Shown here in pieces: positions 15,470 to 16,564 of a stretch of 30,914 nt of DNA; position 1 is the stretch's first letter, and each line of letters starts with the position of its first letter. The stretch covers positions 1 to 30,914 of the IMG/VR virus record IMGVR_UViG_2537562231_000009; one strand, written 5' to 3'. This stretch comes from a virus. Its lineage: Duplodnaviria > Heunggongvirae > Uroviricota > Caudoviricetes. The translations under genes were made by a program, and so were the position numbers. The notes under the pieces were generated by a model. The model was not told where the DNA came from. It ran no database searches and saw only the letters and a list, made by a program, of their open reading frames with translations.

Positions 15470-16564
15470 TTGTTCTATGTGAGCACAGGCTCGCTTATCT
15501 CCTCAGGAAGATTAAAACCAGGCAAAATCAAACGTGTTTCAGCAAAGAGCGATCAAAACGGTATCATCGGAGAGTTTGATACCGAGTTTATGGATGATGC
15601 AAGGCATTATGAAAATTTTATAAGCGTTAATTTTTTTGGAGATGCTTTTTATCATCCTTATTGTGCCAGCGTAGAAATGAAGGTGCATGTTCTTACATTA
15701 AAATCAAGTAAGTCCGACTTTAATGCAAAGCGCGGACTGTATGTTGCCAGTATGATTAATAAAGCTTTAAAGGGGCGTTTTAATTATGGTCAACAGTTAT
15801 CGAGTTCCAAACTCAGAGATGGAGAATATTTCATCTCATTACCAGTGAAAAATAATGAAATTGACTGGTTTTTTATGGATAATTATATAGAAGAGCTGGA
15901 AGCGGCCCATATAGAAGAGCTGGAAGCATACCTGATAGCTGCTGGGCTGAGTGATTACCAACTAACGGAAAAAGATTATCTTATCCTGGAGCATTTTAAA
16001 AATATTGAATTTTCAGGCTTTCCTGTTACTGAGTTATTCTCAGTGTGCAATACAGGAAACATATTGTCTAGAGACATCATAGAAAATAGTGGGGATGTTC
16101 CTTATCTTTGTGCTAGCCGTGATAATAACTCTGTTAGTTCTTATATCGCCTATGATGACTCACTCTTGGAAAAAGGGAACTGTATTTTTATTGGTGGTAA
16201 GACATTCGTTGTAACTTATCAGGAGCGAGACTTTTTTTCAAACGACAGTCATAATTTGCGACTCTATGTTAACAATGAGGATGGAAGGACAAAGTTTGCT
16301 TATTTGGGCATTATTTCATGTATTTATAGGTCTATTTCACATAAATATTCATGGGGGGATAGTGTTAGTAATAGAAAAATTAAGAACGATGTTATTTGGT
16401 TGCCAGTGAAAAATAAGTCACCTGACTTTTGTTATATAAATGACCTTATTTCAGTTGTTCATAAGCTTGTCATTAAAGATGTTGTCCAGTACGCAGAACG
16501 CAAAATGAACGCATACAGGCAAGCTATAACAAGTCGCGGTTATGATGATTCTGGTGTCAGTTAA
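15470..16564 (+). CDS. HsdS-like specificity subunit with two short target-recognition domains and a central repeat region
   Basis: Two variable domains separated by IEELEAAHIEELEAYL; HsdS-like motifs (ISLPVKNNEIDW..., IWLPVKNKSPDF...); first canonical start is TTG; visibly AT-rich. Confidence 0.65.
   Translation: MFYVSTGSLISSGRLKPGKIKRVSAKSDQNGIIGEFDTEFMDDARHYENFISVNFFGDAFYHPYCASVEMKVHVLTLKSSKSDFNAKRGLYVASMINKALKGRFNYGQQLSSSKLRDGEYFISLPVKNNEIDWFFMDNYIEELEAAHIEELEAYLIAAGLSDYQLTEKDYLILEHFKNIEFSGFPVTELFSVCNTGNILSRDIIENSGDVPYLCASRDNNSVSSYIAYDDSLLEKGNCIFIGGKTFVVTYQERDFFSNDSHNLRLYVNNEDGRTKFAYLGIISCIYRSISHKYSWGDSVSNRKIKNDVIWLPVKNKSPDFCYINDLISVVHKLVIKDVVQYAERKMNAYRQAITSRGYDDSGVS

Follow-up and report, generated by a model that had tools for sequence, protein, structure and literature searches.

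A restriction-modification system in an E. coli prophage was found to carry a 24-bp tandem repeat in its specificity gene (S), inside the helix that joins the two recognition domains of the S protein, and related alleles carry one to four copies of the unit. By analogy, the reading of this repeat as an EcoR124-type gap-setting mechanism, present here in a Type IIB family and represented by an unusually complete natural allelic series, appears to be largely right. We consider it likely that the repeat is a module of the first conserved helix (CR1) which is gained or lost in frame and so alters the gap of a Type IIB bipartite site. The DNA analysed, called the window below, is the whole stretch of 30,914 nucleotides of the IMG/VR record IMGVR_UViG_2537562231_000009.

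The window is part of an E. coli lambdoid prophage and its flanks match Stx-type phages. The genes for the nuclease-methylase (RM) and for S follow closely on NinG and the Q antiterminator (12073-12582). The site of the pair is the moron position that follows Q (window 12073-18450), where related phages have their Stx genes. In OkiPb01714 (L008 5583-6823) RM-S is located directly upstream of stx2A/B, and in related loci a hok/gef toxin gene is found between Q and RM. Downstream of RM-S in the window, an ORF with a TerB domain (17367-17870) and a DUF1737-SASA esterase-DUF6645 protein (18450-20303) were observed. Public annotation of such loci and their proteins (L001-L009, P0001-P0011) is inconsistent: spurious minus-strand ORFs over a 7-bp tract in RM were named 'YXWGXW repeat-containing protein' or 'EmrB/QacA transporter', and S was annotated as 'type II restriction endonuclease subunit R', split in two CDS, or given non-ATG starts.

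The original prediction placed the S gene in a Type I system, and this assignment had to be given up. No HsdR was found in the window, where the longest ORF has 781 aa and the neighbours of the pair are phage genes, and in related loci only RM plus S was seen, again with no HsdR. The methylase is fused to a PD-ExK nuclease. The methylase part matched N6_Mtase (E=7e-21) and contains the motifs FILNPPYS and DFATGSAG, which do not vary in the alignment; the N-terminal nuclease module gave a weak match to VRR_NUC, and its residues R58-P59-D60 and E78-Y79-K80 were invariant in the alignment. The TIGR00497 hsdM model scored 35 bits on RM against a cut-off of 243, and phage PhiR12_3 has an identical RM gene, for which the annotation is BcgI alpha-like. 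The window system is a BcgI-like Type IIB pair consisting of the nuclease-methylase fusion plus S. The same organization of an RM fusion and an HsdS-like S with no translocase is found in BcgI, BsaXI, Hpy99XXII (= JHP1364/1365) and HpyUM032XIII, and the H. pylori members are true homologues, with an S protein (P0053) of 48% identity and an RM junction represented by L096. The system is carried by 30 of 5,426 complete E. coli genomes. The family is very widespread, and from Firmicutes through Proteobacteria to candidate phyla its RM proteins share about 70% identity.

Searches of S and RM by phmmer against PDB chain sequences found nothing, so that similarity of S to EcoR124-type S was undetectable in this way, and NCBIfam had no model for S. 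For this reason a comparison of folds was used for S. An AF2 model of the window S was built from an alignment of 69 homologues (pLDDT 91.4), and its Foldseek matches were 1ydx (E=4e-15), 1yf2, EcoKI (2y7c among the matches listed), the BsaXI S subunit (8w0p_C) and the EcoR124I S subunit (7bst_A among the matches listed). The Pfam family Methylase_S matched S in two stretches. The model thus gives S an HsdS-like layout, with two predicted recognition domains (TRD1 and TRD2) and a central helix paired antiparallel with a C-terminal helix (CR2). The positions of these and the other features are collected in Table 1.

Table 1. Features of the RM-S locus. Positions are those of the window unless an allele is named.
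Feature	Position	Strand	Remarks
RM gene, PD-ExK nuclease fused to gamma-class N6-adenine methylase	13104..15410	+	
(GACCAGC)x34 microsatellite, 5' coding end of RM	13121..13358	+	on/off phase-variation tract
Candidate slippery heptamer G GGA AAG, RM zero frame	15401..15407	+	directly before RM stop TAA 15408-15410
13-bp hairpin, putative frameshift stimulator	15413..15451	+	begins 5 nt after heptamer
S (specificity) frame, HsdS-like, TRD1-CR1-TRD2-CR2	15407..16564	+	Pfam PF01420 E=1.3e-19, Foldseek, ORF list
TRD1 of S	roughly 15437-15865	+	
CR1, central conserved helix of S	15866..15940	+	residues 154-178 (from V=15407), AF2, DSSP
Exact 19-mer ATATAGAAGAGCTGGAAGC	copies 15885-15903, 15909-15927	+	offset 24
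24-bp unit 1	15887-15910	+	encodes IEELEAAH
24-bp unit 2	15911-15934	+	encodes IEELEAYL
TRD2 of S	roughly 16001-16426	+	
CR2, C-terminal conserved helix of S	16427..16534	+	residues 341-376, antiparallel partner of CR1
(GCGGACTC)n in related S alleles	L007 4069-4196, L008 4069-4132, L009 4096-4143		16, 8, 6 copies

The raw letters of the window at 15880-15940 are TATATAGAAGAGCTGGAAGCGGCCCATATAGAAGAGCTGGAAGCATACCTG. Tandem Repeats Finder called the array at 15887-15938 with a period of 24, 2.2 copies and a score of 69. A 17-mer occurring twice with a 24-bp period had been described at this place; the repeat and its period are real and beyond chance, but the exact match is 19 nt, two bases longer than given. 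The claim that the repeat encodes IEELEAAH-IEELEAYL between the recognition domains was borne out, as both units are in frame within the S ORF and correspond to residues 161-176, inside the CR1 helix of the AF2 model. With the 7-bp microsatellite set aside, the window held a single exact local repeat of at least 15 nt at offsets of 8-60 besides the 24-bp unit (20 nt, at 6383). Exact runs of this kind reached at most 14 nt in 20 dinucleotide-preserving shuffles, as compared with 19 nt in the 24-bp array, and this argues against a chance match. An assembly artefact is opposed by the recurrence of the arrangement in 18 independent complete genomes and one phage genome, and both alternatives by the in-frame position of the repeat and its conservation at the protein level across phyla, so that origin of the repeat by chance or artefact has practically no probability. 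The six codons common to both units are identical at 17/18 nt positions. This far exceeds what the same amino acids would need and points to duplication or homogenisation of the units at the level of DNA.

Two further repeats were noticed elsewhere in the window. A 39-bp unit is present twice at 6383-6460 (92% match, 20 nt exact) within ORF 6036-6974; it is composed of ~20-bp subunits CATCCC(T/C)CAAAACGAGGGAA, which may be iterons of a replication origin. A 162-bp tandem repeat at 30622-30914 (1.8 copies, 87% match) continues past the end of the window and probably represents a repeated domain of a late structural gene.

Copy-number variants at homologous loci, anticipated by the original prediction, were found: the number of units varied from 1 to 4, also between otherwise identical alleles, and it varied inside CR1 and not outside the spacer helix. 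The S gene was present at full length in 20 complete E. coli genomes, with 2 units in 18/20 and 3 units in 2/20. The span of the gene among the 18 two-unit genomes was 1201 bp in 17 and 1200 bp in E110019, and the genomes of SCU-104 and JNEC-KY173 were exactly 24 bp longer here than the window allele, corresponding to 3 units. Protein clusters that share one set of recognition domains had 2 units (P0003, P0007), 3 units (P0004-P0006, P0008, P0009, P0011) or 4 units (P0001, P0002). The clusters of this group, among them P0003, P0004 and P0001 with 2, 3 and 4 units respectively, showed at most 2 residue differences outside the repeat, and their C-terminal helices were identical. The 3-unit alleles are not rare, P0004 being carried on 107 contigs and P0006 on 69. 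Comparable series were obtained in a different TRD1 background (1, 2 and 3 units in P0015, P0023 and P0030), in a further background (3 and 4 units in P0016 and P0014) and in Salmonella (2, 3 and 4 units in P0042, P0046 and P0038), and two Neisseria contigs with an identical RM protein had 2 and 3 units. CR2 was unchanged in 1-, 2-, 3- and 4-unit alleles.

When one genome per species was taken from 79 other species, the number of units ranged from 1 to 3 with a mode of 2; 3 units were found at 14/79 loci and 1 unit at 3/79, a count of 1-unit loci that does not rest on a simple regular expression for the unit, which undercounts divergent first units. The added unit of 3-unit loci was typically identical to the neighbouring unit at 18/18 nt, and the 2-unit arrays across species were often identical at 17-18/18 nt. 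Judged from these sequences, the 3-unit expansions arose independently in many phyla, and the near-identity even of 2-unit arrays indicates repeated homogenisation. The family consensus is itself an imperfect two-unit repeat, IAELEAER-IAELEAYL, and therefore the window allele carries the default length. The term tandem duplication, used for this site beforehand, is thus appropriate for the repeat at the DNA level, but not for a new event in the window, as two units are the ancestral state of the family. Two units are the commonest number by far across phyla, which suggests purifying selection for a standard length.

The central region could also have kept its DNA identity mainly as a crossover point for shuffling of recognition domains, with the change in copy number as a by-product. 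Alignments to alleles with another TRD1 begin exactly at the repeat (query 472-486, corresponding to window 15871-15885, e.g. L004-L006), the repeat region of ~60 bp is all that seven further genomes share with the window, and RM-gene similarity to other alleles ends about 45-50 nt before the RM stop, so that TRD1 is exchanged as a cassette with the repeat as its boundary. However, some series differ only in the number of units, with no exchange of domains, and our main explanation is compatible with shuffling, since unequal exchange at the repeat is just what changes the unit number. Shuffling as the main reason for the identity is therefore improbable. The comparisons with L004-L009 (window about 15361-15885) break at two places, near the RM stop and at the helix repeat. 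From these break points, the RM tail, the putative frameshift cassette described below and TRD1 form one exchangeable cassette, and TRD2 with CR2 another.

By analogy with EcoR124I/II, a change in the number of 24-bp units probably alters the gap within the DNA site that is recognised. The type IC HsdS subunits EcoR124I/EcoR124II, EcoDXXI and EcoPrrI resemble the window S in that their first conserved helix, which joins the TRDs, contains short in-frame tandem units, and the EcoR124I and EcoR124II alleles likewise differ only in the number of units, with the second helix uncompensated. In that pair two or three TAEL units result in GAA N6 RTCG and GAA N7 RTCG, respectively, and the change was attributed to unequal crossing-over (PMC3874165). 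The EcoR124I/II unit has 4 residues (12 bp) and adds 1 bp each, whereas the window unit has 8 residues (24 bp) and occurs naturally in 1-4 copies; EcoR124I/II serve HsdM/HsdR, whereas the window S serves a Type IIB nuclease-methylase fusion. We know of no description of CR1 unit-number variation in the BcgI-like Type IIB class, and none was found in the literature searched.

In the mechanism that we infer, each 24-bp unit would be one 8-residue module of CR1, and the antiparallel pair of CR1 and CR2 would keep the two TRDs at a fixed distance and twist. Because adjacent units are nearly identical at the DNA level, replication slippage or unequal crossing-over could gain or lose whole units in frame. 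By our own geometric estimate, each unit gained or lost would then alter CR1 by 8 residues, or about 12 Å, and leave CR2 as it is, and the gap of the bipartite site would, by analogy with EcoR124I/II, shift roughly 2-4 bp per unit. Scaling from EcoR124I/II gives about +2 bp per unit, and the helix rise alone would give about +3.5 bp. In the Type IIB setting both flanking cut positions would shift relative to each other, moving apart as units are added. The gaps of the homologues Hpy99XXII (N6; methylation motif TCA N6 TRG, PMC3936762) and HpyUM032XIII (N7) are uninformative on the unit number, as their recognition domains differ. Since a 24-bp array of two copies should slip far less than a microsatellite, its variation should represent allelic diversification and not rapid phase variation.

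The AF2 model of the 4-unit allele P0001 had one continuous CR1 helix of 41 residues, as compared with 25 residues with 2 units, and the partner helix CR2 stayed at 36 residues. The pTM was 0.58 for the 4-unit and 0.74 for the 2-unit model, and the pLDDT of the repeat region in the 4-unit model was about 76-82. An 8-residue insertion with no compensation in CR2 shifts the heptad register, and proteins with 3 or 4 units could therefore have impaired function or promiscuous recognition. These properties could also be explained if the differences in unit number were tolerated or neutral polymorphism, or mildly defective helix alleles, all with the same gap, the extra residues being taken up by a flexible TRD2 junction or by fraying of the coiled coil. 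The invariable CR2, the lowered scores of the 4-unit model and the dominance of 2 units across species are in line with this possibility; moreover, how the shift in helix register is accommodated was considered "not clear" even for EcoR124 (Loenen et al. 2014, PMC3874165). On the other hand, 3-unit alleles are independent in many phyla, common and intact, each unit change altered the gap in the one analogue tested experimentally, and the AF2 helix remains continuous. An unchanged gap is thus rather unlikely, and a gap that follows the number of units is preferred.

The proposal that the repeat is a second, independent variation mechanism in the same system was in agreement with the presence of 34 GACCAGC copies in the 5' coding part of RM. 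The tract has 23-120 copies in nine further E. coli loci, some of which are in the on and some in the off state; JNEC-KY173, with 66 copies, has RM in frame. A full-text literature search for GACCAGC gave unrelated primer matches only. Two overlapping ATGs in different frames precede the tract of the window: the one at 13104 is in frame with RM but is poorly placed, and the one at 13112, which is preceded by a Shine-Dalgarno sequence, is out of frame at 34 copies. With the downstream flank as in the window, a frame open from ATG 13112 into RM requires a number of GACCAGC copies divisible by 3. As this ATG is out of frame in the window, the RM-S system may be switched off here.

In some related E. 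coli S alleles (L007-L009) the helix repeat is followed immediately by an 8-bp microsatellite, (GCGGACTC)n. This tract encodes GLADSRTR and is absent from the window allele; L009 has a full-length S, while L007 and L008 have a frameshifted half S. The switch between full and half S resembles that of NgoAV and HpyUM032XIII S1/S2, in which half S is switched by homopolymer tracts. Unlike half-S switching, the 24-bp unit of the window changes the length in frame and never truncates the protein. The E. coli prophage alleles differ from the BcgI-like systems of H. pylori in having the 7-bp microsatellite in RM, and where H. pylori has a poly-G tract some E. coli S alleles have the 8-bp microsatellite instead.

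The junction of RM and S contains a further candidate element, which is a more novel lead than the adjoining repeat. The S frame has no ATG, GTG or TTG before 15470, and a start at 15470 would remove the conserved beginning of TRD1. The 3' end of the RM gene reads TTT GCG GGA AAG TAA, and the -1 frame from the putative slippery heptamer runs into S (..FAGK VNSPLSDKLRSVEWGEF..), so that the predicted junction peptide of an RM-S fusion would be FAGKVNSPLSDK. The fused chain would have about 1,070 residues, or about 1,150 with translation of the leader encoded by GACCAGC. S lacks a start codon and lies in the -1 frame relative to RM, past a slippery site, and an RM-S fusion may be the only form in which it is produced. 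The hairpin that follows in the window, of 12-13 bp and placed 5-6 nt downstream, has a folding energy of -23.3 kcal/mol (z = -6.1). At 83 junctions 96% of cells were paired, as compared with 33-49% when the partner was slid, and double-change cells over the 83 loci numbered 46 versus 8.8 in shuffles. The covariation includes a synonymous Leu codon changing together with an E/K/Q codon. No Rfam family was found at the RM/S junction.

In other E. coli alleles the heptamer is A AAA AAG, located one codon before the RM stop, and at about 90 loci from many phyla (L004, L006, L010-L096) RM ends in G GGA AAR, A AAA AAR or, in H. pylori, C CCA AAG, 0-1 codon before the stop. The tally was 52 for GGGAAAA, 30 for GGGAAAG (including L051) and one each for AAAAAAA and CCCAAAG, plus AAAAAAG in the E. 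coli alleles. The third base of the codon preceding the heptamer is in all cases the one required, and the amino acid of this codon varies (L, S, E, P, A, Q). The heptamer is thus conserved as an X XXY YYZ pattern and not as amino acids. Termination-reinitiation at ATA/GTA was considered for S and judged the less probable route, since every substitute for the heptamer is again of the X XXY YYZ form and an ATG is present at the junction in only 8 of 84 loci. Natural in-frame fusions of RM with S and with half S also occur and are colinear across the junction.

From the pattern of conservation, a conserved -1 frameshift probably makes an RM-S fusion. S is accordingly viewed, with fairly good confidence, not as an independent subunit but as a domain that some of the RM chains would gain through a conserved -1 frameshift on their last two codons. 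A single mRNA would in that case give RM and RM-S in a set ratio that could build an (RM)2S enzyme. The junction is like dnaX (A AAA AAG) and lambda G/GT (G GGA AAG) in having an X XXY YYZ heptamer and then a hairpin after a spacer of 5-6 nt, and many of the loci also have an upstream GGAGG-like element. Unlike in dnaX and lambda G/GT, the cassette, known here from sequence, is located at the last two codons of the RM gene, and the product of the shift would gain an entire specificity protein. The literature searched contained no report of frameshifting in BcgI-like or other restriction-modification systems, which is no proof of novelty. In the E. coli prophage version the cassette lies beside three separate diversity generators: the 7-bp tract of RM, the number of CR1 units and, in some alleles, the 8-bp tract switching between full and half S.

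If confirmed, the frameshift would be a new way to express a restriction-modification enzyme, and the annotation of S genes, thousands of which are 'start-less' or mis-started, would be put right. If true, it would also account for the view that H. pylori homologues 'without a start codon' are inactive; HpyUM032XIII is active natively. For the repeat, the natural and otherwise isogenic series of 1, 2, 3 and 4 units in a predicted Type IIB enzyme, which would cut at a fixed distance to either side of its site, makes measurable how a one-sided change of a coiled coil becomes a new DNA gap, and the repeat would be a rational handle to re-space Type IIB specificities. For E. coli, the locus is an example of a prophage-borne restriction system, placed where Stx-type morons lie, that has several independent ways to diversify.
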